NCBI GenBank assembly: GCA_038058635.1
Contig: JBBUAP010000001.1
Coordinates: 13,606 to 77,605, forward strand
Reading direction: 5' to 3'
Source: Patescibacteria group bacterium
Lineage (GTDB): Bacteria > Patescibacteriota > UBA1384 > 2-12-FULL-50-11
DNA length: 64,000 nt
This document shows positions 14,410 through 45,915 of the stretch, piece by piece. The notes beneath the pieces were generated by a model. That model ran no database searches, had not been told where the DNA came from, and saw only the letters and a program-made list of their open reading frames with translations. Position 1 is the stretch's first letter; each line of letters begins with the position of its first letter. The position numbers and the translations under genes are program-made.

Positions 14410-14520
14410 GGGGAATTACTGAATAACTAAATTACGAAATTACTGAATTAAAAGCTTCCACAATTCAGTAGCTTCGAACGAAGTGAGAAGCGAGCGAAGC
14501 GACATTCAGTAATTGTATAA
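14410..14520. promoter_or_regulatory. array of ATTACTGAAT / ATTCAGTAAT dyad repeats upstream of the ATPase operon
   Basis: ATTACTGAAT occurs twice and its reverse complement ATTCAGTAAT twice within 110 nt, immediately upstream of the ATPase start. Confidence 0.4.
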
Positions 14521-14534
14521 TTTAGTAATTATCT

Positions 14535-25300: not shown

Positions 25301-25847
25301 AGTTGGCGGGATTATTCACGCCCTAAAGAAAATTACGACCAAAAACGGCCAGACGATGGGCTTTATTGAGCTGGAAGATCTCACCGGCACCTTAGAACTA
25401 ATTGTCTTTCCGTCGCACTTCCAAGAATTAACCCACCTCTGGAAACCGGATATGATGGTCCTGATCGAAGGGAAGATCTCCGATAAAGACAATTCCGTCA
25501 AAGTCCTAGTCGATCGTGCTTGGGCCTTAAACGGGTTGAATCCGGTGAACCTGCCGAAAATAAATCAGCCAACGGCTAACGGCAATCAGCGATCAGCAAA
25601 TTATCAATCTCCGAAAGCCGACAGCCGAAAGCCGACAGCCGAAAGCTTTGTTATCGATCTCCCCAAAACGGCTACTAAAGAAACGATATCTCGATTAAAA
25701 CAGGTGCTTGAAGCTCATCCCGGTGCCCTGCCAGTTGAGCTACATATGATGCAGGGCGAGAAGCTCAAAGTGTTCCCAACCAAAGTAGCCGTCAAAACCT
25801 CACCGGAATTGAAAGAGCAGCTGAATAAAATCCTAGACAATAATTAG
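22359..25847 (+). CDS. dnaE: DNA polymerase III alpha subunit
   Basis: PHP domain HVHSHYSLLDGL. Polymerase core and OB-fold C-terminus. 1162 aa. Confidence 0.95.
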   Translation: MAQPNFVHLHVHSHYSLLDGLGKVPELVGRAKELGMPALAITDHGVMYGAIDFYLECQKQGIKPIIGVEAYVARRKMTDRTPGEDTKPYHLLLLAKNFQGYQNLIKLTSAAHLDGYYYKPRIDRDLLSRHHEGLIATTACLASETSRLIENKDFKGLNQTVGEYSEIFGKDNYYLELQHHPSIPEQQVLNTHLKNLAAKTGLPLIATNDVHYVNSDDRVAHDQLICIQTGKLVSDTDRMVYGGDFSLKAPQELLEAFGDVPEALSNTLKIAEMVDLEIPLGQSLLPHFQLPKGETEESYLRAWCEQGLQKRYGEITLEIRARLDYELETVMKTGFPGYFLIVADMIKFARSKGIYVGPGRGSAAGSIIAFVTGITNVDPLKYGLLFERFLDLNRISMPDIDMDFEDTRRGEVIEYLKEKYGANHVAGIITFGTIMARAAIRDVGRVLGVPYSKVDALAKLVPPPVQGRHTPLKQMVAAAPELKAAYDSDPENKQLVDAATNLEGTIRHASQHACAIVISKEPLENYVAVQPSQGGDVHQITQYSMLPIEKIGLLKMDLLGLSNLTTMHRATEIIEAVYGPKIDIENLPLDDKETFELLARGDCVGVFQLESSGMRRYIKELRPTKFEDITAMVSLYRPGPMQWIQSFIDRKNGLEEVRYLHPLAESALKETYGIPVYQEQVMRMSKDMCGFTGAEADTLRKAMGKKIPKLMKEMKTKFIEGAINNGVSKEQATDIFRQLEDFAAYAFNKSHATCYALIAFQTAYLKAHYPDCFMAAVMTSDLGDTDRLSIEISECERLGLTVLPPDVNESFTDFAVVKEKKAVRFGLGAIKNVGTIPAQSIVTERKKNGIFTDLNDFMVRNSAHLNKKVLENIIKAGALDRFEERARLNAGVELLAKFVSNSGKTDASQLSIFGEGASNSAAPVLELPQVATDKAAYLIWEKELLGLYLSDHPLKQFSTLLAEIATPITELDISLSGQVVRVGGIIHALKKITTKNGQTMGFIELEDLTGTLELIVFPSHFQELTHLWKPDMMVLIEGKISDKDNSVKVLVDRAWALNGLNPVNLPKINQPTANGNQRSANYQSPKADSRKPTAESFVIDLPKTATKETISRLKQVLEAHPGALPVELHMMQGEKLKVFPTKVAVKTSPELKEQLNKILDNN

Positions 25848-29356: not shown

Positions 29357-30829
29357 TTGATTAGTGTACCGATCGACAGAATTGTGCCGTTAACCGACGC
29401 CCGCGACAACTTTAGTCGCCTCATTAGTGATATCGAAACCCTTTCTGACGGCTTGTACGTCCTGACCAAAGGCGGGAAACCGGCCATCGCTTTGATTAAT
29501 ATCAAGTATTTAGAGGAGATAATGGATGGCAAGATTGGTGAGAATCACGAATCACGGATCACGAATGCCGGATCAGATCATAAGCCGGAAATTAGTCGCA
29601 AAGTTCACGAGCCAATCCATCGGCCAGCGCCAGTTAAGTTACCGGAACTACCTAAACCCCCAATCGTGTCTAAACCCGACTTCGCTAAAGCTACGACGGA
29701 CAAGCCCAATTTCGAGGTGCCGCGGATTACAACAGCGCCAATCGGTCCCTCGGCTGAGATTACTTCGACTCCACTCCTCTCGACTGGGCTCCCCTCGACA
29801 CAGCTCGGGGTAAACGGGGTAAACCAGTTGCCAGGAGCTTCTTTGCCGTCAAGCAACTACGATGTTAAACCGACCATTAACCCGACCTGGACTGGTGAGG
29901 AAGCGACCGCAAAGCCGCTAGCACCTAGCAGTCTAGCTCCTAGCCAAAGCCCAACTTCTTTTGCACCGGTTCCAAAGCCAGAAGCTAGTAGCCAGTTGCC
30001 AGTTGCTCCGCCAGCTGGCGGATTGCCCCCGATTGCCCAATTAGACAAGCCCTCGCCCCTCGACTCCGCTCTGGGTAAACCTCCGCCGCCTCCGACACCA
30101 AGCAAACCGACGATCAATCCCTGGCCAATCATCCCGCCGAGGTCACCCCAAGTGACCGAGAAGGGATACGAGTCTACGACGACTGTCCCGCCGCGTCGGG
30201 ACGACGCAAGGGATACGAGCCCCGCGACTGTCCCGCCGCGACCGGTCAATACCGCCCTGCCTCTAGCCCCTAGCAGTCTAGCTCCTAGCCCATCATCTTT
30301 TACGACAGTTCCAAAGCCAGAAGCTAGTAGCCCCTCGACTGGTCTCCCCTCGACACAGCTCGGGGTAAACGGGGTAAACCCGCTGCCAGAAGCTTCATAT
30401 CCCAAGATGGTCGCTCCGCCGCCACCACCACCGCCGTCATCGCTACCAAGAATCCCTAGCAGTTTTCAAACCGTGCCAGTACCAATCAACGGCAATAAAC
30501 CCCCAACTACAGCGCCAGCTCCACTTCCCCCTCCCCCTATAACGACTGCTCCAGCACCGTTTGCTAATACATCGCCAGAAGCTCCTGTTGTCACTCCCTC
30601 GACTCCGCTCGGGACAAACCCCAAACCGGCCGATAGCATCTCCTTCGACCAGCCCCCAACGACCATTCCTGAACCAGGAGAAGATCTTCCAATGCCTTCG
30701 GCGTCTACTAGCAATCAACTTCTAGCAACTAGCACCGATTCGGTTCCTGCTCCAAAGCCAGAAGCTAGTAGCCAGTTGCCAGTTGCTCCTCCACAAGGCC
30801 AGGCGTCAGTTCAAGACTTAGAAATCTAG
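29357..30829 (+). CDS. Phd/YefM antitoxin-like N-terminal domain fused to a roughly 430-aa Pro/Ser/Ala-rich repeat region
   Basis: TTG start with AAGGAGG 7 nt upstream. N-terminus VPLTDARDNFSRLISDIETLSDGLYVLTKGGKPAIALINIKYLEEI. Three copies of the VPKPEASSQLPVAPP / TGLPSTQLGVNGVN repeat block, visible at the DNA level. Confidence 0.55.
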   Translation: MISVPIDRIVPLTDARDNFSRLISDIETLSDGLYVLTKGGKPAIALINIKYLEEIMDGKIGENHESRITNAGSDHKPEISRKVHEPIHRPAPVKLPELPKPPIVSKPDFAKATTDKPNFEVPRITTAPIGPSAEITSTPLLSTGLPSTQLGVNGVNQLPGASLPSSNYDVKPTINPTWTGEEATAKPLAPSSLAPSQSPTSFAPVPKPEASSQLPVAPPAGGLPPIAQLDKPSPLDSALGKPPPPPTPSKPTINPWPIIPPRSPQVTEKGYESTTTVPPRRDDARDTSPATVPPRPVNTALPLAPSSLAPSPSSFTTVPKPEASSPSTGLPSTQLGVNGVNPLPEASYPKMVAPPPPPPPSSLPRIPSSFQTVPVPINGNKPPTTAPAPLPPPPITTAPAPFANTSPEAPVVTPSTPLGTNPKPADSISFDQPPTTIPEPGEDLPMPSASTSNQLLATSTDSVPAPKPEASSQLPVAPPQGQASVQDLEI

Positions 30830-34818: not shown

Positions 34819-37800
34819 TCAGGGTACGATCTCGTACACTTTGGGGAGGGTGCCGGAGACGGAGGTGACGAGGTAACCGCGCTTGACCCCGCCGTAGTAG
34901 CCGACGACTTTGTAAGTATCGGTGGCGCCGAGGGCTTGGGCAGCGTTCAACACAAAGAGCAAGTCTTCGGCATCTGGTAATGTTGGCAGGTAGCGGGTGG
35001 CATCTGACTTACACTGGTAAAGATTGTTAAGTAACTCTGGGTCACCGTTGGCATCTTTTTTAATGTCACTTTTAGCACAGTAGCTATACCAGCCAGCTGT
35101 GGTACCCGTACTACCGCCCCGACTGCTGGCGATGGCATTTCCGACACCGACGCTGGTGGCCAAAATCGCTCCCCCTTTGTCGGTCGCGTTATTAATAGCC
35201 GTGTAGGCAACCAGGCCGGCGGATTTATCGCCATAATTCGTTGTCGCTCGACCGTAAAGCGTAGTGGCAGTACAGCCAAAGCTGAGGAGTTTGTCACAGC
35301 GGTACGGGCGGTAGCCGTCTTGATCCCAACGGCCATTAACACCAGCCCCTGACAGAGTCGGGACAGACATAATTAAACTGGCTAGAGGCGTACTTCCCTG
35401 GCTTTTAAATCTGGCACCTAAATCGCTTAAAATTGCCGTTCGGCCCCAACTCCAACCGTTATAAGGATTAGGATCGTTCGAATCAATTTGACTATTATTA
35501 CGACCCATACCACCCAACTGAGATAGTAATGGCTTTGAAGAGCAGACCGTACCAGCAGAACCATTGACTTGGCCAAGATAAGTACATACCTTGTTAGTGC
35601 CCCGATCGCTGCCCTGGAACTTCAGGGATTTATCAACGCCGCTAGGCCAGCCGGTAGCGTTGTCCTCGATGGTTTTAGTTAGAGAGACGGCGGTCGGATC
35701 GTTAGCGGCAAAGTTGTCGATAATATAGAAGCTGTTGTCGATATTATTTCCGCTATCGGGCCGGCCGAGCATTTTGGCACCGATCGAACTACCGTAGTCA
35801 GCGCTGGAAATGTCGGTTTTTTGTTTGCCTCCAAAGTAGACCAGTTTGGTTAATCCGCCGGATTTGTAGGCGACGAGTGAGCCACCAAATAGATTAGGGA
35901 TGTCGCTGGCCGAGTTGGGCGAGACATACTGGGGCGTCCAAGCGGCGTTACCAAAAGTCGGATTTGCTCCAGCGTTATCTTGTTTCCAGAGCGAGCCGTA
36001 CTGACCGAATGTCCCACCAACCATAAATAACTTACTGGCATTCTGAATGACTCTTGCCCCTGCAGTAAATATACTAGCCACCGCTCCGGCTCGTCGAGGT
36101 GAGGGGCGGTAAAGAAGGGTAGGATTTTTAGCGGAGAGGCGAATCTTCCAGGCCCCATTACCAACAACATCTTTGACCCACTCTGGAGCGTTGGTGGAAT
36201 CGTAATAATTCATTTGATGATCGGTGATAGTAACGAGACGATCGGTTCCACCAGCATTGGCAATTTGACTCGAGCTATAGCCGAACGGATGGGGAGAAGC
36301 GATCAGTTTGTCAAAGTAAATATTGAAAGTATTGTTTACAAAAGTTCGTCTTGTAACGATAAAGGTATAGGCGTTGACCGGGAAAGTCCCGGGTGGGTTA
36401 CCAGTATTAAGCCAAATCATCACCATCGCCCCGACACCCGGAACCCGACCAAGATTTGGCACGTTTTGGAGCGAGACATGATCAGAATAACCCTTGAAGG
36501 TACCTCCAATAGTCGTAGTTGTGTCAAACGACGGGGTCATAGTGACTTTGACGTTCTTTGAATCACCAGAAAGGCCGGAATCCCCTGGATAGTCCGGGTT
36601 ATGCCTCAGGCAGAGCTGTTTAGTTTCGTAGACTACACCACATGGCGAATTAGTAAACATGTCCTCAACAATGCCATGAAAAGTTTCGCGACTACCATCA
36701 CTTGTTCGTCGCTCTAGCGTTGCCCAGGCTCCAACAACAACTTTATCGGCATCATTGGGATCAATTTCCATTCGCCATTTCTTACTGTCGTCCCAGATTT
36801 TGTAAGTAATATTATTACGATCGGTGTAATCCTTATCTTTGACTGCCCCAAGGTTCACACCGCCACCTGTAATATTGCTAGTAGCAACTTGATAAGTGTA
36901 ATTCGACCGAATAACCTGAAAGTTGTAAACGCTACTAGTGGTAAAGTTGGGGTCGATTGTATTGTCCGTTGGCTGGGGCAACCAGGCGGCGCTAAGGGGC
37001 CCGGGATTAGTAGCCTTGTTCTTAAACTCTACATTCCACAAATCAGCGAAGCGTAGATTGTAGTTGATGTTTTTAGCGGCGCCTTCCCAGTATGAGGCCT
37101 TGGTTGGCGCTAGCGGTTGGAGAGCAAGGGTGGCACCGTAACGAGGCGAGGGGAAGGCGATAGCCGAATCGCTGGCAGCGATAGCACTGCCTTGATCTTG
37201 TACCACAAAGTCAGCAACGGCACTTTTGGTCTCATCGGAGACAAAATAGGCCTTACCATAAATATCGATATAGTTTATAAAGCCGGACAGGGTGTTGGTC
37301 AGACTAGTTGCGTCGTACTGCTCCAAGACAACCGAGTCTCCAACAGCGTAGCCGGTCGAGTCGCCACTCGAATCTAGTTGGCAAAAATAATGGCCAGCAT
37401 CTATGCCACCAACGCAGGTGTTGGTGGTGATCTGTCGCTTGACCACTTGGATCGCTAGAGACTTCATCGTAATCGATCCTTCAGAACCGTTATAACCGTA
37501 GACCATGAGTTCAACCATGTTGTTATTGTTGTAAACATTTTTTACTTTGCCCCAGGCGTAAAATTTACTGTCATCGGCTTTATTGCCGTACAGATAGACT
37601 TCATCGCCTTTGGCAAGCCCTGCGACGGCAGGATTAAGATAAATGAGCGAAGAAGCAGTACCATCAACCACAAGATCTTGGGATTCACCAGGTTTATTTT
37701 TTACTATCCAATTCCATCGCTCTAAGCCAGAGCGATCAGCCAGTGTTGAGGTAACACGAACGGTATAGCGTAGCCCACTCTGAATTTTCTTTGTTACGTC

Positions 37801-39981
37801 AATGGTTGAAGCATAGTCAATCTTTTCCCATGTATTAACCGCTGGACTCGCAGGATTTAGATCGAAGGCATAAACATCGTTGGTCACTCGCTTAGCAATC
37901 CTTAAACCCGGTCTGTTAGTGTAGAGACAGGTTGATTGGTTAGTCTCGCAGTTAATGTTGTTTGGTGCTAGCATTACTGCCTGGTGATAATAGCCGCCGA
38001 TCATCACTAAACGCTGGTTAACTGAATCGTATACCATCGAAGCGCCAGCGCGCTTACCAGGATTTGTATTACTTGGGGCCTTAAAAGTCCAAGCGAGATT
38101 CTGATCAGCCACTTCCGGATCGTAGATCCATAATTGATCGGATTCCGAGGCGTAGCCGCCATCGTAGTCGTTCATATTCACAGCCCCGCCGTAGTAAGCT
38201 ATTTTCGGGCCATTTTGTTCAAAATAAGTATAAGCCATCTCCCGGATTGGCAATGGGCTCTGGCGGAGTTTGTCAACGGTGAAATTAGTGAAGGATGTAC
38301 CGCTGCCGAAATTAACATTCGTCACTTTACCCCAAACCGGCTTATTGGGCGCTTTCGTCAAGCTAACTAAGTCGCCGACAGCCGGACAGATGGTCGCACA
38401 ATCGTGTCCGTTGGCGGGAGTAATGACAGTACCATTACTACCAATGCTGACCGAATCTATTGAATTAGCTGTTGAGAACTGCGGCGGCGCAAGCACAACG
38501 ATCGTGTCAACATCCGCCCCGGTTACCCAACCACCCGAAGCTTTATGTGGCGTATTATAATAGTTACCACTGAGATCATCACCACTACCCAACTTGAAGT
38601 CAACGCTAATCGCATCGACACCGTTACTGGTTGTGATTGGACCGATTTTTGTGAACTCTGCACTGTACAGTCGTCCCTGGTCTTGACCTCGGTACTTAGT
38701 TTCTAGTGACAGTGGTTGCTGATTTTTGTCAAGCAACAGCAAGGTAATCGATTGATTGAGACGCAATCCCTCAAGTGAGCCATAAACAAAACCACTAATG
38801 GTAGCACTGTTACTTCCGCCGGAAAATGTTTGGTTGTTGTCGGCCAATTTAATAAACGAAAAAGATTTTGCTCCCTTAACGATCGCCGTTCTCCAGCCTG
38901 AATCGGCGCTCGTCATCACTGGCTGGCTTTTCTTCGCCCAAGCTAGCGTGGCGTTTTCGGCATCATCAGTTTTGTACGGTGTTGAAAGATCGTCAGCCTC
39001 CGGGGTGTCGTTCCAGAGAGAGGGCTGAAGCCATTTCAGTTTGTAGTCGGTCGAGTTAACGAATAGGTCGCCAAAGCCGTATTGATAAAGTTGCGCATCA
39101 GATATTGAGGCGTCAATCCAGACCTTGAAATTGTTTTCTTTAATCGTTTTTTCAAATTTCTCTCGTAAATCTGTCGCTGTAATCCTATCGAACTTCGAAC
39201 CTGGAATAGTTGGAGGAAGCCCTGTGTCACTCCAGCGCGGCAAATAAGGAATATAGACAAAATCGACATTCTTGTAAAACGAGCTTACCCCGTCGGTGTC
39301 TTTTCTGGTTAAGAACTGATCTTGTGGTCCGCCGAGCTTAACCGTCCAATAATTCAGATCTTTTTGTTTGGCGCCAACTGGGGCGAAGGGATTGTAGAAG
39401 TGTCCCATATTGGTCAGCTGGGAAACGGTTTTGGCTTTGTCGGTGTCCGGAAGGGCGCCGTTACCAGGAATAATCCCCAGCGGGGTGTCGTTGACGATAT
39501 TGGCGTAGTTAAAAATCATCGCTGGGTTGGCGTCGTTGGTCTGGTTTTGTAAATACTGGCCGTCATTGGTCCATGGCAGTAAGACGATGACGCCGTTACA
39601 CCGTGGCAGAGAGGTGGAAATCTTTTGGTAAGTGGAGACGATTTTGCGCGGGCTGGGGCGAAAGGGAGTTGAGATCGGGGTCGTTTCTTCATTTTTATCA
39701 AGATCGAAAACCGTCCCGGTCGTCGCCGGCGGCGTGCCAGCGGCCAGTTTTTCTTTGAGCTTGACCAAAGCCGAGTCAGCGGCAGATTTGGCGACAGTGG
39801 CGTTAGCAATTTTGTCGGTCGAGGCCAGTTGGTCAAACCTAACCGCAATCGACGCCAAAGTCGTCGTCGTCAAAATGGCGATAATCATTACAGTCAAAAG
39901 CAACGCTGAAGCTGGACGGTTACTTTGATTAAACATCGTCGCCTCCCTCGATTCGTCCTTGATTCTCACATTGCTGCGCAA
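34819..39981 (-). CDS. giant (1720 aa) membrane-anchored surface protein, last gene of the pilus-like operon
   Basis: N-terminal signal anchor ASALLLTVMIIAILTTTTLASIAV followed by about 1650 aa of Gly/Asn/Thr/Ser-rich beta-type sequence. No catalytic motif. Co-directional with, and 78 nt downstream of, the pilin-like genes. Confidence 0.55.
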   Translation of the reverse strand: MRSNVRIKDESREATMFNQSNRPASALLLTVMIIAILTTTTLASIAVRFDQLASTDKIANATVAKSAADSALVKLKEKLAAGTPPATTGTVFDLDKNEETTPISTPFRPSPRKIVSTYQKISTSLPRCNGVIVLLPWTNDGQYLQNQTNDANPAMIFNYANIVNDTPLGIIPGNGALPDTDKAKTVSQLTNMGHFYNPFAPVGAKQKDLNYWTVKLGGPQDQFLTRKDTDGVSSFYKNVDFVYIPYLPRWSDTGLPPTIPGSKFDRITATDLREKFEKTIKENNFKVWIDASISDAQLYQYGFGDLFVNSTDYKLKWLQPSLWNDTPEADDLSTPYKTDDAENATLAWAKKSQPVMTSADSGWRTAIVKGAKSFSFIKLADNNQTFSGGSNSATISGFVYGSLEGLRLNQSITLLLLDKNQQPLSLETKYRGQDQGRLYSAEFTKIGPITTSNGVDAISVDFKLGSGDDLSGNYYNTPHKASGGWVTGADVDTIVVLAPPQFSTANSIDSVSIGSNGTVITPANGHDCATICPAVGDLVSLTKAPNKPVWGKVTNVNFGSGTSFTNFTVDKLRQSPLPIREMAYTYFEQNGPKIAYYGGAVNMNDYDGGYASESDQLWIYDPEVADQNLAWTFKAPSNTNPGKRAGASMVYDSVNQRLVMIGGYYHQAVMLAPNNINCETNQSTCLYTNRPGLRIAKRVTNDVYAFDLNPASPAVNTWEKIDYASTIDVTKKIQSGLRYTVRVTSTLADRSGLERWNWIVKNKPGESQDLVVDGTASSLIYLNPAVAGLAKGDEVYLYGNKADDSKFYAWGKVKNVYNNNNMVELMVYGYNGSEGSITMKSLAIQVVKRQITTNTCVGGIDAGHYFCQLDSSGDSTGYAVGDSVVLEQYDATSLTNTLSGFINYIDIYGKAYFVSDETKSAVADFVVQDQGSAIAASDSAIAFPSPRYGATLALQPLAPTKASYWEGAAKNINYNLRFADLWNVEFKNKATNPGPLSAAWLPQPTDNTIDPNFTTSSVYNFQVIRSNYTYQVATSNITGGGVNLGAVKDKDYTDRNNITYKIWDDSKKWRMEIDPNDADKVVVGAWATLERRTSDGSRETFHGIVEDMFTNSPCGVVYETKQLCLRHNPDYPGDSGLSGDSKNVKVTMTPSFDTTTTIGGTFKGYSDHVSLQNVPNLGRVPGVGAMVMIWLNTGNPPGTFPVNAYTFIVTRRTFVNNTFNIYFDKLIASPHPFGYSSSQIANAGGTDRLVTITDHQMNYYDSTNAPEWVKDVVGNGAWKIRLSAKNPTLLYRPSPRRAGAVASIFTAGARVIQNASKLFMVGGTFGQYGSLWKQDNAGANPTFGNAAWTPQYVSPNSASDIPNLFGGSLVAYKSGGLTKLVYFGGKQKTDISSADYGSSIGAKMLGRPDSGNNIDNSFYIIDNFAANDPTAVSLTKTIEDNATGWPSGVDKSLKFQGSDRGTNKVCTYLGQVNGSAGTVCSSKPLLSQLGGMGRNNSQIDSNDPNPYNGWSWGRTAILSDLGARFKSQGSTPLASLIMSVPTLSGAGVNGRWDQDGYRPYRCDKLLSFGCTATTLYGRATTNYGDKSAGLVAYTAINNATDKGGAILATSVGVGNAIASSRGGSTGTTAGWYSYCAKSDIKKDANGDPELLNNLYQCKSDATRYLPTLPDAEDLLFVLNAAQALGATDTYKVVGYYGGVKRGYLVTSVSGTLPKVYEIVP

Positions 39982-40058: not shown

Positions 40059-41732
40059 TTAACCGGGCTCCAATCCACCGCCACAAACTGCAAGTGGGTC
40101 GCTGATAGTCAGATTAAAACTTTTGGTTGCGGTTTTAAGTGGGTCGGCGTTATCACGCACCCTAATGGTGAGACTATAAGAGTAAGGATACAATTTGCCG
40201 GCATCACAAGTCGGAGTACCGGAGATTATACCGCCAGTACTTAAAGCCAGCCCTGGCGGTAAACTGCCGGAATCAACTGTCCAAGTGTAAGATCCGCTCC
40301 CGCTAGCGGTCAGTTGGAATGGGACATAGACAGCATTGATACTGCCACTTGGCAGAGGGCTTGATGTCGTAATTGTCAGTGTTTGGCCACCACTTGGCGA
40401 GACCGTTAGAGAGAAAGTTTTCTCCGCATAGTTAGTTAGATTACTACTTTCGGCAGCCCTGATAAGGAAGCTGTAAACGCCAGCCGTCGTGGGAGTGCCG
40501 TCAATTTTACCACCAGCACTCATACTCATGCCGTTAGGCAAACCGCCGGATATAATCGTCCAGGTGCAGCTGCAAGGCATGGCAGGATCAACGCCTCTAT
40601 CAGCTTTTAATTGTCCCCCGGGTAATAGCACCCCCGGATTGTAACTTACTCCCACGGTGGCGTCTGGCAGTGGGGTAGTAGTTGTGATTACTATTTGATC
40701 ATCAATGACAAAGATCGACAGAGGTTGGGAGGCAGTACCAATGATGGGGGTGGCACTATCCGTAACCGTCACAGTAAAGTTATAGGTATGGCCAGCAGTG
40801 GGCGGGTTTGGTGTACCGGTAATTACTCCGGTAGTCGTCGACAAAGCCAGACCGTTGGGCAGAGACCCTGAAGTTATCGCCCAAGTGTATGGTGGCATAC
40901 CACCACTAACGACAACGCTTGTAGCATATGGCGGAGTACCGGCATGAGCATTCGGCAAGGTTGTCGTCTCAATTTTGAAAACGACTGTTGCTTCGTTGAC
41001 CAAGCCAATCGGCAATCCCTCCTGAATGGTTAGGGTTGGTTTTCGGGCCTCGCTAGTGCCGCCACTGCCTTTTTGGGCCGCCTCCAGCGTCAGCGAATAG
41101 CGCAGGAGCTGTTTGGTCACACAGGAGGAGGTAATGGTAGTGCAACCAACACTTTTCACTGCAAACTGGGCGGCTTTAACCACGGCCTGAACATTGGTTA
41201 GGCGATTTTGATAAATCGGACTAGTTGTCGGACAGAGACCGCCGGAATCGACATTATAAATCAGGATAGCGATGACTGTTCCGACTTTATTGATGGTATA
41301 TTTCTCCTCGCCTGTGGAGTCGGTAGTGGCGATGGCTCGGCCGATCACAGTACAGGTGTTGCCGGATTGTAAGTCGGAAAAAGCTTTGACCTGAATGGCG
41401 GCAAATGTCGTACCACCGTCGTTGGGAATAATTGGGGTGACTGCACCAACTGGAGCGTTAGCGACAGTTCGCCGAATGGCCTCGCCCACCCCGCGAGTGC
41501 TCTCGCTAATCGATGAACGGGCATCGGCTTTTTGAATCATGCCGTTAGTACCGACAACGGCGAATAGAGCAATACTTAAGGCGACAAGCAGTAAGGCGAC
41601 ACTGACAATAAGCTCAATCAAGGTGAATGCTCGGGTACGAGAATTTCTAATTTCGAATTTCGAATTTCGAAAATTTTGAGTTTTGAGTTTTAGTTTTGAC
41701 TTTTGACTTTTGACTTTTAAGTTAACTTTCAT
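40059..41732 (-). CDS. prepilin-like protein with a 35-aa Lys-rich leader and tandem Ig-like (He_PIG/cadherin-like) repeats
   Basis: Start at MKVNLK, overlapping the upstream stop (ATGA). Leader MKVNLKVKSQKSKLKLKTQNFRNSKFEIRNSRTRA then FTLIELIVSVALLLVAL. Three LPNGLALS..G.I.GTP repeats. Confidence 0.6.
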   Translation of the reverse strand: MKVNLKVKSQKSKLKLKTQNFRNSKFEIRNSRTRAFTLIELIVSVALLLVALSIALFAVVGTNGMIQKADARSSISESTRGVGEAIRRTVANAPVGAVTPIIPNDGGTTFAAIQVKAFSDLQSGNTCTVIGRAIATTDSTGEEKYTINKVGTVIAILIYNVDSGGLCPTTSPIYQNRLTNVQAVVKAAQFAVKSVGCTTITSSCVTKQLLRYSLTLEAAQKGSGGTSEARKPTLTIQEGLPIGLVNEATVVFKIETTTLPNAHAGTPPYATSVVVSGGMPPYTWAITSGSLPNGLALSTTTGVITGTPNPPTAGHTYNFTVTVTDSATPIIGTASQPLSIFVIDDQIVITTTTPLPDATVGVSYNPGVLLPGGQLKADRGVDPAMPCSCTWTIISGGLPNGMSMSAGGKIDGTPTTAGVYSFLIRAAESSNLTNYAEKTFSLTVSPSGGQTLTITTSSPLPSGSINAVYVPFQLTASGSGSYTWTVDSGSLPPGLALSTGGIISGTPTCDAGKLYPYSYSLTIRVRDNADPLKTATKSFNLTISDPLAVCGGGLEPG

Positions 41733-42193
41733 TCTATTATCCTCGCCGTAGTCATCTGTCTCTGCACCCCTTTGCCCCAAGAGGTGGTGGCGTTGACGAG
41801 GTAGCTAGTACCGGTCAAACGGATGACGACTGATGGCACAAATTGTAGTTTGCTCGTTCCAATTTGAATAGTGGCTTTGGTTTTCTGTAGGACACAGGAT
41901 CCGCTGGTGTCCACCGGGCAGACAACATAGCAAGTTTTACCTTCGCCAATACAATCAAGACCGGGGGGGGCTGGAGTGCCGTAGGTCGTTGCGAAATTTG
42001 CTCCTTTAGTCCTTTTCTCCAGCGCCACGAAAGAGAGTGACTGCTCGTTCAATCCTAGGGCAATTTGTTTGAGCTCCGTCGTTTCGGTCAGCCGGGCGGC
42101 GGCGTTATTGAGCGTTGCCATGGCCACCCCGACCATAATCAAAAAGGCAATCGCAAAAATCACCTCGATTAATGAGAATGATCGCTTCATCAT
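41729..42193 (-). CDS. minor pilin/pseudopilin-like protein
   Basis: MMKRS then FSLIEVIFAIAFLIMV class III-type N-terminus with E5. 154 aa. Start overlaps the upstream stop by 4 nt. Confidence 0.6.
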   Translation of the reverse strand: MMKRSFSLIEVIFAIAFLIMVGVAMATLNNAAARLTETTELKQIALGLNEQSLSFVALEKRTKGANFATTYGTPAPPGLDCIGEGKTCYVVCPVDTSGSCVLQKTKATIQIGTSKLQFVPSVVIRLTGTSYLVNATTSWGKGVQRQMTTARIIE

Positions 42194-43530
42194 TGTGGGG
42201 TTTCCACACAGGGATTAATTATTTGAGCCAACCCCCGACCAACGAACAATTGGGCTAATCTGTTCTTCAAGCGATCGGTAGACCTAGTAATTGGAACAAT
42301 CGGATTGCAGGCGGTGGCGTTACCGCCCGGGTCAATCTGCACAATCGGCGGTGGCAGGACATCGCTGGGCGGGTCAGAGATTATCGAGCCGCAAGAAAGG
42401 ACGAAGTCCTTAGACCTCGGTTTGAGTCGGAGGTCAGTCAGATTATCACGACCATTGACCGAAGGCTGAGTAAGCTTAATTGCATCAAGTGCTGATACTA
42501 TCACGGTCACTGTTTTGGGTTGGTTGGCAACTGTAAAAGTGTCAGTCGTAAATTGGAAGCGAACCGGGTATTTGGTTGGGTCACCAGGGTCATATGGAGC
42601 CAGGTCATAAAAGTAGCTGATAGCTAGTGGCTGTGAAGGCGCCGTACCAACTTTCCATTCAATGTTGTAGGCAACAAATAAATTAGGGTCGCCTTCGGAG
42701 GTAGCGTCATTAACCCGGTCATTGGCTCTCGGATAGCTTATGGTGATATCTGATTGCGAAGTACCACAGGCAACTGATACCGTAAATTTGCTCGCATCAG
42801 CCACATCGGTCCATTTTGGAACGAGATCGTCAACAACTGGCGTGAAATAACTTTGGGGGTTAGAGCGAGAGATAGCGACTTGATGAGTGACACGATCGAG
42901 CGTCACATAGCGTTTGTCGCCGACTTTTTGGCTTCCTAGAGTGACAACTAAATAGCGAGCGACGGTGGCGCCGTTATCTTTGTCTTTGCCTGCCCAGTTG
43001 GCCAAGAAAAGTTGGCCAGATTTGAACGCCGGGTTGGCAAAACTGCCACAACTGAAGCCGTTCTCGCCGACGGCAAATCGTATCACCGCCTGGTCGTCAT
43101 CGACAGTTTGATTGGAGGGGTAGAACGACGAAACATAAATTCCGCGCGGCAATTTGATGTTGCGCAGGGTGGTAAATCCGCCCGGCACATCACTGCCATC
43201 GCATTGGACTAGCCCGCGTTCGAGAGCGACGGTGTTGGTCGTCACTTCGCCGTTAGCCGTACCGTTGGTGGCGGCTTTGGTAAACTTGCCGAACGAGACC
43301 TGGAACACCTGTGGAGCGCCCGAGCTGTCGTTTTTGTCCGGTGCTTGAGAGCGAGTCTGGGCTTCGATAATCACCTGACGAACTTGGCTGGCGCTGGAAT
43401 CCAATAACATTCGATCGCTCCGATTGAAGAAATTGGGGATACTAGTAATGCCAATAACGGTGATGACGGCAATCACCACTAAAAGCTCGACCAGGGAGTA
43501 GGCAGAACGATTAGTAGGCCACGACAACAT
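42190..43530 (-). CDS. prepilin-like protein (large)
   Basis: ...TNRSA then YSLVELLVVIAVITVIGI N-terminus. Start ambiguous (ATGs at 43593, 43548, 43530), all overlapping the upstream gene end. Confidence 0.5.
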   Translation of the reverse strand: MLSWPTNRSAYSLVELLVVIAVITVIGITSIPNFFNRSDRMLLDSSASQVRQVIIEAQTRSQAPDKNDSSGAPQVFQVSFGKFTKAATNGTANGEVTTNTVALERGLVQCDGSDVPGGFTTLRNIKLPRGIYVSSFYPSNQTVDDDQAVIRFAVGENGFSCGSFANPAFKSGQLFLANWAGKDKDNGATVARYLVVTLGSQKVGDKRYVTLDRVTHQVAISRSNPQSYFTPVVDDLVPKWTDVADASKFTVSVACGTSQSDITISYPRANDRVNDATSEGDPNLFVAYNIEWKVGTAPSQPLAISYFYDLAPYDPGDPTKYPVRFQFTTDTFTVANQPKTVTVIVSALDAIKLTQPSVNGRDNLTDLRLKPRSKDFVLSCGSIISDPPSDVLPPPIVQIDPGGNATACNPIVPITRSTDRLKNRLAQLFVGRGLAQIINPCVETPQ

Positions 43531-44452
43531 CGAGGTCTCCTGCCACATCTTTGCAATCTGGGTTAGCAATATAGCTACTTGCACTACTGACAATTGGCTC
43601 GTAAGTTACTTTATTATCGGGAGTAATAACCGAGCTATCCGCAGACTTTCTTTTGCATTGGTACAGGTATTTGCCGTCATAAACATTAGCACCGCCCAGG
43701 ACATATAGAGAACCGTAAAAGTTGTAATTAATGTCAGTCAGGACATTGGAATCTGAATCTGAATCGTCGTCAAGATGGCGAACAACTGAACCAGAGCCAC
43801 GATAGTAGCGTTTTAGCGCAGTAGTTTGGTTGAATAAGAAACTTGCGTCAGAGTCGGTAGCCGAGTTTTCTAGATTTGAGGTCACGACCACATCGCCATA
43901 GTCATAAGAAACTCGATACTGGTATTTATCCCAAGCATTGGCCGACATCGGCTTGGGATCGGCCAGCAGGCGGTCCATATAACGCAGGCAGATCAGAAAA
44001 TGATTTACTGAAACGAACCCAGGCTTGAGCGTAATCTTTGGCGCACCCGCCGTCGCATTATTAAGTTGATCGATTGTTGGGTCGAGTGGGTTAGTGCTGG
44101 AGAATTGGGCGGAGTCGCCGCCGCTAGCTGGTAAACCATTGCAGGCCACAATATCGGTGCCGAGACCGAAGTTTGAGTTAATATTCAAGTCGGTTGCGTT
44201 GCCCTGATCGCCTAGGCTAAATGTCGGATTCGGATAAATCTTGAAGTCGGCTTTGAACAGATTGATTCCTGATAAGAAACTGTTGATCTCGGCTTTGCGT
44301 TTGGCATCACGACTCCGTTTCTGAACCGGCACAACGGCGACCGTTACTAGGGTGATCAGTATGCCGATAATGGTAATGACAACCAACAATTCGATCAGCG
44401 TGAACGCAGATCGAGAATTTAGAATTTTGAATTTAGAATTTAGAATTTTCAT
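43511..44452 (-). CDS. type IV pilin-like protein (probable major subunit) with a repetitive Lys-rich leader
   Basis: MKILNSKFKILNSRSA then FTLIELLVVITIIGILITL. The leader is encoded by (AAATTCT)5 on the coding strand. Confidence 0.65.
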   Translation of the reverse strand: MKILNSKFKILNSRSAFTLIELLVVITIIGILITLVTVAVVPVQKRSRDAKRKAEINSFLSGINLFKADFKIYPNPTFSLGDQGNATDLNINSNFGLGTDIVACNGLPASGGDSAQFSSTNPLDPTIDQLNNATAGAPKITLKPGFVSVNHFLICLRYMDRLLADPKPMSANAWDKYQYRVSYDYGDVVVTSNLENSATDSDASFLFNQTTALKRYYRGSGSVVRHLDDDSDSDSNVLTDINYNFYGSLYVLGGANVYDGKYLYQCKRKSADSSVITPDNKVTYEPIVSSASSYIANPDCKDVAGDLDVVVAY

Positions 44453-44564
44453 TTCCCCTCGAATTCCATACTAACAGGATTCATGACTTACTTCTTGATT
44501 CTTGATTCATAACTGCGAGGCATTGCCGAGAAGCGAGCGTTAGCGACATTCTTGATTCTTCCTG

Positions 44565-45770
44565 CTAGAATGATCCCGTTAAGCTGTAGATTGGTTGAAG
44601 AACAGATATAACAATAAACGCCACTGCTCCACCGAGGATGACGATGATAAAAGGCTCGATAAGAGCCGAGAAAGTGCGCAGTTTACCGTCGACTTCCTGC
44701 TCAAAATAATCCGCCAAGGTTGAGGCCGAGCCGCCCAAATCGCCTGACTGCTGACCAACAAAAAGTAACTGGGTCATCATCTTTGGGAAATATTTGTTAT
44801 CTTGCATCGTTGAAGTCACGGCCGCGCCTTGTTCGAGCGAGTGCATTAGTAATTTGAGCGTCCGGCGGAAGATTGTATTAGGGGTGGAGTCGGCGATGAT
44901 GCCAACGGCTTCCAGAATCGGCACGCCTGCCGCCAGCAATAGTGACAGCGTTCGATTGAAACGAGCCAGATAAACCTGGAGAGTCAGCGGTCCGAAGATC
45001 GGAAAATGTAATCCGAGATAGCTACTAACTTCCTTGCCTGGCTTGGTCATGGTGAAGAGTTTGATAATTACGACCAGCCCGATGACGATAGCAATCAACA
45101 GTACCCACTCGTTAATCAAAAAGTCGGTGATCGCTAGTAAAATCTTCGTCGAAACCGGCAATTCGGTTTCTTGGGAGCTGAAAATGTCTTTAATCGGCGG
45201 GATAACTTTGGTCAAGATAATTGCTCCGACGACAATCATCACCACGAAGATAAATGCCGGGTAAATCATCGCCCCACGAACCTTGCCGACGAACTCGGCC
45301 GCTCGAGCGGTGCTCGAGGCCAAATCGTCCAGAACCTTAACCATGTTACCCGTCGCTTCACCAGCTCGGACTACCCCAACCTCCACTTCGGGAAAGGTCT
45401 TGGGCTGACCAGCCATTGCCACCGACAGCGCAAAGCCGTTTTCCAGCGACTGGTGGATTTGACGCATCACTTTGCGGAGTCGCTTGTTCGGTGTCTCGGC
45501 GACTATATCAATTGCTTGAGTAATACCAACGCCAGCTTTCAACATTGTTGAAAGCTCCCGGTACATAATCGACCGGTCTTTGGCCGAAACTTTGCCGGCC
45601 GAGAACTTGCCTAAAACCGACCCCTCTTCAACGATCGAGATGACAGTGTAATTGCGGCTTTGAAGTAGCCGACGAACTGCCGCAAGCGTACCAGTCGCTC
45701 GGCCAGAGCGGATATGACCTTTTTCATCTTTGACTTTATACCGAAAAAAAGGCTTTGCTGTTTTCTTCAT
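44565..45770 (-). CDS. pilC: type IV pilus assembly platform protein PilC (GspF family)
   Basis: Two GspF-type repeats and three TM segments. Start at MKKTAK with GGAGGG immediately upstream, inside ORF 44565..45911. Confidence 0.8.
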   Translation of the reverse strand: MKKTAKPFFRYKVKDEKGHIRSGRATGTLAAVRRLLQSRNYTVISIVEEGSVLGKFSAGKVSAKDRSIMYRELSTMLKAGVGITQAIDIVAETPNKRLRKVMRQIHQSLENGFALSVAMAGQPKTFPEVEVGVVRAGEATGNMVKVLDDLASSTARAAEFVGKVRGAMIYPAFIFVVMIVVGAIILTKVIPPIKDIFSSQETELPVSTKILLAITDFLINEWVLLIAIVIGLVVIIKLFTMTKPGKEVSSYLGLHFPIFGPLTLQVYLARFNRTLSLLLAAGVPILEAVGIIADSTPNTIFRRTLKLLMHSLEQGAAVTSTMQDNKYFPKMMTQLLFVGQQSGDLGGSASTLADYFEQEVDGKLRTFSALIEPFIIVILGGAVAFIVISVLQPIYSLTGSF

Positions 45771-45824
45771 CCCTCCATAAAAAAGTGTAAAGCATTGAAG
45801 GGGAATTAGAAATACTAGAAAGAC

Positions 45825-45915
45825 ATACGGGCGCTTGAAATACATCGCTACGAGCGGGACTTGGAGTACCAAAAGCCCGTATCGATATATTTCAAGCGCC
45901 CGTATCGACATATAT
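45825..45915. promoter_or_regulatory. 18-bp perfect inverted repeat plus direct repeats in the pilC/PRC-barrel divergent intergenic region
   Basis: atacgggcgcttgaaata (45825..45842) and its reverse complement tatttcaagcgcccgtat (45888..45905). Also direct repeats gcccgtatcga(t/c)atat, two copies 23 nt apart. Confidence 0.45.

Follow-up and report, generated by a model that had tools for sequence, protein, structure and literature searches.

The window analysed here, i.e., the whole 64,000-nucleotide stretch of contig JBBUAP010000001.1 (assembly GCA_038058635.1) from a Patescibacteria group bacterium, carries on its minus strand a PilC/GspF-headed type IV pilus operon with the gene order PilC/GspF, 313-aa prepilin (gene 1), 446-aa pilin-like protein, 154-aa pilin-like protein, 557-aa prepilin-like protein (gene 2) and a protein of ~1,700 aa (Table 1). 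Gene 2, which adjoins three more pilin-like genes in this way, is the subject of this study. The N-terminus of its product reads MKVNLKVKSQKSKLKLKTQNFRNSKFEIRNSRTRA followed by FTLIELIVSVALLLVALSIALFAVVG, i.e., a hydrophilic, lysine-rich leader of 35 residues (12 Lys/Arg, one Glu) stands ahead of FTLIEL, and the protein matches PF07963 (N_methyl; 25.0 bits, cutoff 21.2) and TIGR02532 (20.1 bits, cutoff 16.3). The mature N-terminus possesses Phe+1, Glu+5 and ~21 hydrophobic residues after the predicted cleavage site. Most of the leader is supplied by ~80 nt of nearly unbroken period 7 (41641-41723). The gene model, the N_methyl matches and the operon context agree with a first-pass annotation of this DNA, which had described heptamer arrays at the 5′ coding end of this gene and had seen it as the second prepilin-like gene in the operon.

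Table 1. Features of the pilus operon and of its repeat-encoded leaders in the window
Feature	Position	Strand	Basis or remark
PilC/GspF platform protein (T2SSF domain, E 2.4e-50), first gene of the operon	44565..45911	-	profile match
53-nt block: ribosome-binding site, ATG, whole gene-1 array, CGATC	44409..44461	-	identical in L129
Gene 1: 313-aa prepilin, leader MKILNSKFKILNSRSA/FTLIEL, directly 3′ of PilC	43511..44452	-	translation, profile matches
Gene-1 array, five AAATTCN units with seventh bases T, T, A, T, T	44414..44448	-	encodes KILNSKFKILNS
154-aa pilin-like gene (MMKRSFSLIEV...), translationally coupled to gene 2	41729..42193	-	ATGA overlap
Shine-Dalgarno sequence GAGGA, 7 nt ahead of the gene-2 ATG	41740..41744	-	read from sequence
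Gene 2: 557-aa prepilin-like protein, N_methyl motif at residues 31-56, three He_PIG Ig-like domains	40059..41732	-	profile matches
Gene-2 leader-coding region, 35 codons, ATG (41732-41730) to Ala-1	41628..41732	-	translation
(AAAGTCA)3 and partial units, 5′ end of leader coding	41694..41723	-	encodes KVKSQKS
AAACTA (6-mer), then (AAACTCA)2	41674..41693	-	encodes KLKLKTQ
AAATTCN array: AAATTCG, AAATTCG, AAATTAG, AAATTCT	41641..41671	-	encodes NSKFEIRNS

The repeat tract and the two leaders

On the plus strand, positions 41649-41669 read (AATTTCG)3 and are followed by AAAA, positions 41674-41687 read (TTTTGAG)2 followed by TTTTAG, and positions 41694-41714 read (TTTTGAC)3; the three arrays are thus real and have the sequence given in the first-pass annotation. 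Tandem Repeats Finder reports GAATTTC with 4.4 copies at 41641-41671 and TTTTGAG/TTTTGAC with 7.3 copies at 41674-41723. Read on the coding (minus) strand, the tract consists of AAAGTCA (three times), AAACTA, AAACTCA (twice), AAAATTT, TTCGAAA (three times), TAGAAAT and TCTCG, where (TTCGAAA)3 is the AAATTCN array in an alternative register. Its translation, MKVNLKVKSQKSKLKLKTQNFRNSKFEIRNSRTRAFTLIEL, equals the leader peptide quoted previously. The 7-nt units, whose length is not divisible by three, occupy codons 6-31, and the last AAATTCN unit begins 19 nt ahead of the Phe+1 codon. The reading frame is open from ATG 41732 through the arrays to RTRA/FTLIEL (here and below, the slash marks the predicted cleavage site), and this ATG overlaps the TGA stop codon of the upstream 154-aa gene. 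As neither ATG nor GTG nor TTG is present between the arrays and the FTLIE codons, the gene-2 arrays must be translated.

Perfect period-7 runs (at least two copies plus five bases; Markov shuffles of the 64-kb window as control) are found three times in the window (41649-41671, 41694-41718, 44429-44448) against 0.0 expected, and all three fall inside the leaders of the two pilins encoded by genes 1 and 2. The sequence AAATTCNAAATTC, with at most one mismatch, occurs seven times (0.96 expected) and is likewise confined to these leaders. The arrays have a GC content of 25-29% in a genome of 50% GC, and the leader region of gene 2 as a whole has 0.29 against 0.51 in the remainder of the gene. 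The first unit starts at codon 2 in gene 1 and at codon 6 in gene 2.

The leader of gene 1 comprises 16 residues and is encoded by ATG, AAAATTCT, AAATTCT, AAATTCA, AAATTCT, AAATTCT and CGATCTGCG, with the last unit beginning 16 nt ahead of the Phe+1 codon. Three or more AAATTCT units in pure succession have a TAA in each of the frames; the gene-1 frame stays open because the A in its third unit removes that stop. The motif NSKF(K/E)I(L/R)NSR common to both genes is a single AAATTCN unit translated in three frames. Residue -1 is Ala in both leaders (41628-41630 and 44405-44407), and in the Berkelbacteria orthologues (P0008-P0098) Gly and Ala are about equally frequent at this position, which was described as invariably Gly in bacterial prepilins (PMC4471445).

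Both arrays are unpaired in predicted RNA folds. A riboswitch or attenuator was dismissed, as the fold z-scores are -0.4 at both starts and no stable structure is present; Rfam gives no match at either leader, at the gathering threshold and at E≤1. An antisense promoter formed by the TTGAC units was dismissed as well, since the promoter and terminator scans resemble shuffled sequence (7 vs. 7.3 and 9 vs. 7.0, respectively). Programmed frameshifting at A_AAT_TTT, an array junction that fits X_XXY_YYZ, would have neither a downstream structure nor an alternative open reading frame (ORF).

Matches to the window are found in groundwater assemblies from Hainich (wells H43/H51, 0.1 µm fraction), and its annotated homologues are named Candidatus Berkelbacteria or Patescibacteria. 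The host is an uncultured, Berkelbacteria-like groundwater organism of the Candidate Phyla Radiation (CPR). The last gene of the operon (34819-39981, minus strand) encodes a protein of ~1,700 aa with only weak Kelch/beta-propeller matches; its position is kept in all related loci, and its product is a candidate for a pilus-associated adhesin.

Identity within the population and turnover between species

In assembled metagenomes, all 11 contigs with the exact 154-aa neighbour also encode the exact 557-aa product, and both are distributed in the same way over the size classes. Five loci, taken from different runs and assemblers, do not differ in a single base across both leaders, the three gene-2 arrays included. 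Array invariance was measured in this way at the level of the assembly consensus. An assembly or sequencing artefact, or a mis-called start that would leave the arrays as untranslated 5′ region (5′ UTR), is hardly conceivable given these data. Assemblers can indeed collapse or expand low-complexity repeats, and one metagenomic pilin (L157) does carry its array in the 5′ UTR. However, the same sequence was obtained in independent ENA and Logan assemblies of different runs, the gene-2 ATG has a Shine-Dalgarno sequence and is anchored to the upstream stop codon, and ATG, GTG and TTG are all missing between the arrays and FTLIE.

Orthologues of gene 2 (38-73% identity) have leaders of 5-35 aa. They read MFKRRG, MRLKKG, MPYLTFEIRSWTRA, MTVKSNHHLHLAGGGGSAPRG (21 aa; its DNA holds the 13-bp perfect hairpin ACCACCTCCACCT-GGC-AGGTGGAGGTGGT), MEQKLRNGKHQKLSSSAILKFRNSEPA (27 aa) and, in locus L128, MNYKITKLRNYGITECGKIKFSDLVIQKFSNSRSG (35 aa), which is encoded by four 8-mers AATTACGN and degenerate TAATTCN. 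The gene-2 arrays were found in none of the six orthologues retrieved. In most of these loci the gene start is anchored to the end of the upstream gene; in L126, a gap of 50 nt separates the two genes. Judging from these leaders, the stretch between the anchored start and FTLIE is free to change, and the AAAGTCA, AAACTCA and AAATTCG arrays are specific to this species as far as the retrieved orthologues tell. Such perfect, species-specific units point to recent expansion.

The leaders of 61 gene-1 orthologues have 5-52 residues and are mostly unrelated to each other, many of them being canonical (e.g., MRNRKA, MHKRA). The length variation of leaders suggested in the first-pass annotation can therefore be retained for the comparison between species, for both genes, whereas no such variation is seen within the population. 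One of these orthologues, P0015 (60% identity to gene 1), has an identical leader, while proteins with more closely related bodies (P0009-P0013, 63-75%) have unrelated ones. This mismatch between the relatedness of leaders and bodies (P0008-P0015 vs. locus L129) is consistent with recombination at the conserved N-terminal helix. Furthermore, the junction AAATTCTCG(A/T).. stands ahead of the cleavage site not only in genes 1 and 2 but also in the gene-2 orthologue of L128, in L206 and in L183/L196, the last being an unrelated pilus operon with NSKFEIRNSRTRG. The recurring junction suggests a leader module moving among pilin genes beside the conserved FTLIELLVV-coding anchor.

A different picture is obtained for the start of gene 1. 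In the gene-1 region, the related species L129 (GCA_964362925.1) is 57.5% identical to the window overall, and the upstream intergenic DNA cannot be aligned. Nevertheless, the two share an exact run of 53 nt, made up of CGAGGGGAA-ATG, the entire array of 35 nt and CGATC; the second-longest such run has 16 nt. A third species (L127) possesses a gene-1 orthologue with a 16-residue leader encoded by five point-mutated heptamers (AAAATCT/TAAATCT). The 53-nt block hints at a role of the gene-1 start at the level of the mRNA. A 7-codon upstream ORF, ATG GAA TTC GAG GGG AAA TGA (MEFEGK; 44449-44469, minus strand), overlaps the gene-1 start by ATGA, and short upstream ORFs with the same kind of end are located at this start in L129 (MDYEGK) and L127 (MGK). 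As MEFEGK is not preceded by a Shine-Dalgarno sequence, it may be a by-product of the conserved GGGGAAATGA. In L129 (2027-3291), PilC is called as two ORFs (326 aa with T2SSF, and 89 aa) just 5′ of the pilin, which could be a frameshift or an assembly error.

AAATTCN arrays in other genes and genomes

When metagenomes were scanned for (AAATTCN)2 no more than 30 nt upstream of FTLIE codons, at least 117 loci were obtained, with 110 unique sites among the matches listed, to which the following counts refer. The arrays are carried by filament subunits that are unrelated to one another, among them GspG equivalogs, DUF1559-like proteins and minor pilins. The first-pass annotation had proposed to look for NSKF(K/E)I(L/R)NSR in homologues, and the motif is indeed common to the first pilin, some homologues and, among these matches, more than 100 unrelated prepilins. 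In 92 of the 110 sites, an in-frame ATG lies upstream of the array and the frame is open to FTLIE; in 12 others, an in-frame TTG or GTG is present just ahead of the array, several of them with a Shine-Dalgarno sequence. The remaining sites are at a contig edge (three), have the array in the 5′ UTR (L157), differ from a twin by a point change from ATG to AGG (L185 vs. L151) or are not pilins (L227). An ATG in either alternative frame was found in just 7 of the 110, and no frameshifted allele was found among the 107 evaluable sites with array and FTLIE. Sixteen clusters of sites have downstream DNA of at least 75% identity, and in 15 of them the members differ by substitutions alone; in the exceptional cluster, L235 has two units and its relatives four. 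Several array leaders without ATG (L135, L153, L161, L176, L198, L223) open with the junction TTG-ATT-CAA-AAT-TC, which suggests that their TTG starts sit directly on the first repeat unit.

These results bear on phase variation, which the first-pass annotation had proposed beside length variation. In such a contingency locus, slipped-strand mispairing would alter the number of 7-nt units, shift the frame and switch both pilins ON or OFF. The arrangement is suited to it: the unit length is not a multiple of three, the arrays lie at the 5′ coding end of surface-filament genes, and according to computed translations a shift by a single unit, in whichever array, leaves a truncated protein of 8-35 aa. 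Units are also homogenised within the arrays of a homologous pilin family (see below), an enrichment of simple repeats close to N-termini has been reported (Lin and Kussell, as cited in PMC4692102), and heptanucleotide repeats mediate phase variation in Haemophilus influenzae (PMC2651432). However, the tracts listed for H. influenzae in the latter paper have 13-38 units, whereas each array here has just two or three perfect ones. In addition, all 11 assemblies are identical, the 107 evaluable sites are free of frameshifts, copy number is constant in 15 of the 16 clusters with related downstream DNA, and the gene-1 array is unchanged in L129 in spite of the divergence of the region. In gene 1, one or three further AAATTCT units ahead of the AAATTCA unit, or one fewer, would give a product of only 8 aa. 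We therefore regard the contingency locus as improbable. What had been named beforehand as speaking against phase variation, i.e., arrays that are absent from homologues and invariant in population data, is largely what was found (none of six gene-2 orthologues, 11 of 11 contigs).

The motif could also be a signal at the level of the peptide, in which the NSKFxIxNS heptad would be recognised by prepilin peptidase, a chaperone or a sorting step and would mark a subset of pilins. It stands 2-4 residues ahead of the cleavage site in many unrelated prepilins (NS-x-x-G/FTLIE), and both leaders in the window end with NSR..A/F. Nevertheless, such a signal appears quite improbable. The periodicity is 7 nt rather than 21 nt, so that the peptide repeat is a by-product of one heptamer read in three frames; the seventh base varies freely, exchanging K/E/Q and Q/R/P; orthologues with canonical leaders of 5-6 residues exist for both genes; and the motif is missing from the further pilin-like genes that the operon contains. 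Searching proteins with a synthetic leader and helix (MKIQNSKFKIQNS...GFTLIELLVV) was uninformative, since the top matches were either spurious short ORFs that run through intergenic arrays or short pilins of the Geobacter type, which have no arrays.

One pilin family (L133, L137, L172, L216, L152, L226), whose members share 35-57% aa identity and a conserved 5′ UTR, has 4-5 units in each array. The seventh base is uniform within each of these arrays and differs between them (A, G, C, C, A and A, respectively), a pattern which, read from the sequences, is concerted evolution at constant length. Prepilin leaders can contain GC-rich perfect hairpins in their DNA (L129:6001-6070, L153, L174, L155, L177, L218, L214, L231, L193, L236), and these often separate AAATTCN units or follow them directly, e.g., TCCGCCGACTGGCGGA, TCCCGAGCACTCGGGA and the hairpin of the closest gene-2 orthologue given above. 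Array and hairpin look like a recurrent composite.

A scan for (AAATTCN)3 in one genome per species revealed at least 120 loci (L006-L125). The listed ones span Nostoc and other cyanobacteria, Bacteroidota, Acidobacteriota, Verrucomicrobiota, Planctomycetota and many CPR lineages. Among the 126 genome arrays listed, 81 are intergenic and none has a genuine prepilin motif downstream, the sole regular-expression match, at 147 nt, being a non-pilin. This makes the AAATTCN array itself a generic bacterial heptamer repeat. Among the matches listed, such arrays often lie next to arrays of other heptamers, to their own inverted copies or to hairpins that resemble terminators.

Further short-period repeats are present in the window. 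Two period-8 arrays (14414-14450, AATTACTG/AATTACGA with 4.6 copies; 14504-14530, ATTTAGTA with 3.4 copies) lie just downstream of the start of a P-type ATPase gene, and the 8-mer of the L128 leader resembles them. An in-frame CCGAAAGCCGACAG with 2.6 copies (25611-25646) is located near the C-terminus of a 1162-aa ORF. GAATCAC with 3.6 copies (29542-29575), likewise in frame, lies inside a Pro-rich ORF of 490 aa (29357-30829) which has no Pfam match and contains long internal duplications, e.g., CGGGGTAAA at 29806/30361 and AGTTGCC at 29987/30767.

Origin of the leader and comparison with known systems

We consider it fairly probable that the gene-2 leader is a slippage-built, translated and cleaved extension in a permissive region, which varies in length over evolution and does not act as an on/off switch. 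The arrays are genuine heptanucleotide simple-sequence repeats, translated as most of the 35-residue class III leader of a minor-pilin-like protein. With its 12 Lys/Arg, this leader would stay in the cytoplasm until its removal by prepilin peptidase and is thus probably cut off the pilus protein; being cleaved off, it would need no more than an open frame, a hydrophilic character and a positive charge. Replication slippage may have expanded A-rich heptamers in this permissive stretch, with an older AAATTCN (NSKFxIxNS) leader module as the seed, which would be common to the pilin paralogues and was probably exchanged beside the FTLIELLVV-coding anchor. The arrays appear to be stable at present, with no switch action in the sampled population. 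Their likeliest benefit, if any, would be an A/U-rich, structure-free mRNA start that favours translation (re)initiation, which suits gene 1 better than gene 2. Of the shared mechanism which the first-pass annotation had deduced from the two genes, a common cause other than chance is supported by the recurrence of the motif, and phase variation is not supported, given the intact frames and identical contigs.

Several points weigh against this reading. In 29 of the 110 listed metagenome sites, the start of the last AAATTC unit is 16 nt away from the Phe codon, and its distance is 9, 16, 23 or 30 nt in 49 of the 110, compared with 1/7 expected (binomial p ~2e-14; the sites are not fully independent). 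This preferred phase yields the NS-x-x-G/FTLIE end, and pure neutrality does not predict it. The homogenisation of the seventh base in each array indicates slippage or conversion over evolutionary time and a retention longer than pure neutrality predicts. The truncations caused by one unit mean that the sequence could in principle switch, and minority slipped alleles within the population could escape data at the consensus level. Moreover, the scan of window ORFs revealed no gene for a prepilin peptidase, and cleavage after Ala-1 is a prediction. The fold z-scores of both start regions are unremarkable, and the benefit for translation initiation is inferred.

According to a further explanation, the arrays would be a conserved cis-acting site, in RNA or DNA, with which pilin messages begin and that binds one OB-fold domain (cold-shock protein or S1) per heptamer, or a dedicated regulator, and controls pilin translation across many phyla. 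A precedent was proposed for TAACTGA heptamers beside start codons, with cold-shock protein binding one per heptamer (PMC4679880). The exact block of ribosome-binding site, ATG and array in the otherwise diverged L129, the retention of five altered heptamers and a 16-aa leader in L127, the persistence of arrays in a pilin family of 35-57% aa identity with six AAATTC positions fixed and only the seventh variable, the preferred phase relative to the cleavage site, and the occurrence of AT-rich arrays inside leaders of GC-rich genomes are all in line with it. However, the gene-2 arrays are absent from the gene-2 orthologues and most gene-1 orthologue leaders are unrelated, the arrays listed elsewhere are mostly intergenic and in varied contexts, neither leader has an Rfam match, no binding factor was identified, and homogenisation driven by slippage can alone mimic nucleotide conservation within an array. 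A conserved site of this kind seems rather unlikely to us. Doubtful, though worth stating, is a bolder version: AAATTCN arrays may be an undescribed cis-element in the leaders of many unrelated type IV filament subunits (GspG pseudopilins, DUF1559-like proteins, CPR pilins, minor pilins), kept in phase, renewed by concerted evolution and acting on the mRNA, either as a platform with one OB-fold per heptamer or by enhancing initiation at a structure-free start, and thereby setting how much pilin is made.

If the repeat-built, cleaved extension is true, gene 2 is a clean natural example of a signal-peptide leader serving as a sink for simple repeats, and it accounts for the odd N-termini of KFKIQNS/KFEIRNS type called on pilins of uncultured bacteria. 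It then also cautions against inferring phase variation from repeat geometry alone. If the bolder version is true, a 7-nt periodic element across phyla would be a new handle on the expression of type IV filament subunits and would bear on the excess of heptamer repeats in bacterial genomes, which was noted long ago and still lacks an explanation. Two features retain interest, i.e., the nucleotide conservation at the gene-1 start and, for AAATTCN arrays in prepilin leaders, their recurrence across phyla, their preferred phase and their concerted evolution. A description of either was not found in the searchable literature, and searches for the peptide motifs and for heptanucleotide repeats in pilin leaders gave no result.

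Type IVb pilins have a residue other than Phe at position +1. The gene-2 leader is similarly long, but its +1 residue is Phe and the helix follows the type IVa consensus FTLIELxV, i.e., the protein does not classify as a type IVb pilin. With class III signal peptides in general (including the long type IVb/Flp leaders) it shares a hydrophilic, positively charged leader, F-T-L-I-E, the hydrophobic helix and the adjoining PilC gene. It is, however, longer than the 6-26 aa quoted for class III leaders, and it ends with Ala instead of the 'invariable' Gly (PMC4471445). It also differs in being almost wholly encoded by 7-nt tandem repeats, ahead of a mature N-terminus that is type IVa-like (Phe+1).

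Simple repeats in leader or signal-peptide coding regions and in promoters cause phase variation, e.g., in Neisseria opa (CTCTT) and in Helicobacter (CT repeats). The arrays in the window resemble these systems in having a unit that is not a multiple of three at the 5′ end of a gene for a surface structure, where a change by one unit would abolish the product, but they comprise only 2-5 units, with no copy-number polymorphism within the population and no OFF alleles in the assemblies and sites examined. A/U-rich, weakly structured 5′ coding regions raise translation initiation. The window arrays are also of low GC content, near the start and predicted to be unpaired, but they are strictly periodic and not merely A/U-rich.

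Finally, heptameric simple repeats are over-represented in bacteria (Mrazek 2007, as cited in PMC4692102), and heptanucleotide direct repeats are known as cyanobacterial short tandemly repeated repetitive (STRR) sequences and as GGGAATC in Xanthomonas and Nostoc (PMC4692102), as well as TAACTGA beside start codons in Beggiatoaceae (PMC4679880). Direct tandem units of 7 nt, usually 2-6 of them, often near translation starts and in many phyla, are common to all of these and to the arrays described here. However, the window arrays lie inside an ORF and are translated instead of being intergenic upstream of a start, and their units (AAATTCN, AAAGTCA, AAACTCA) are different.

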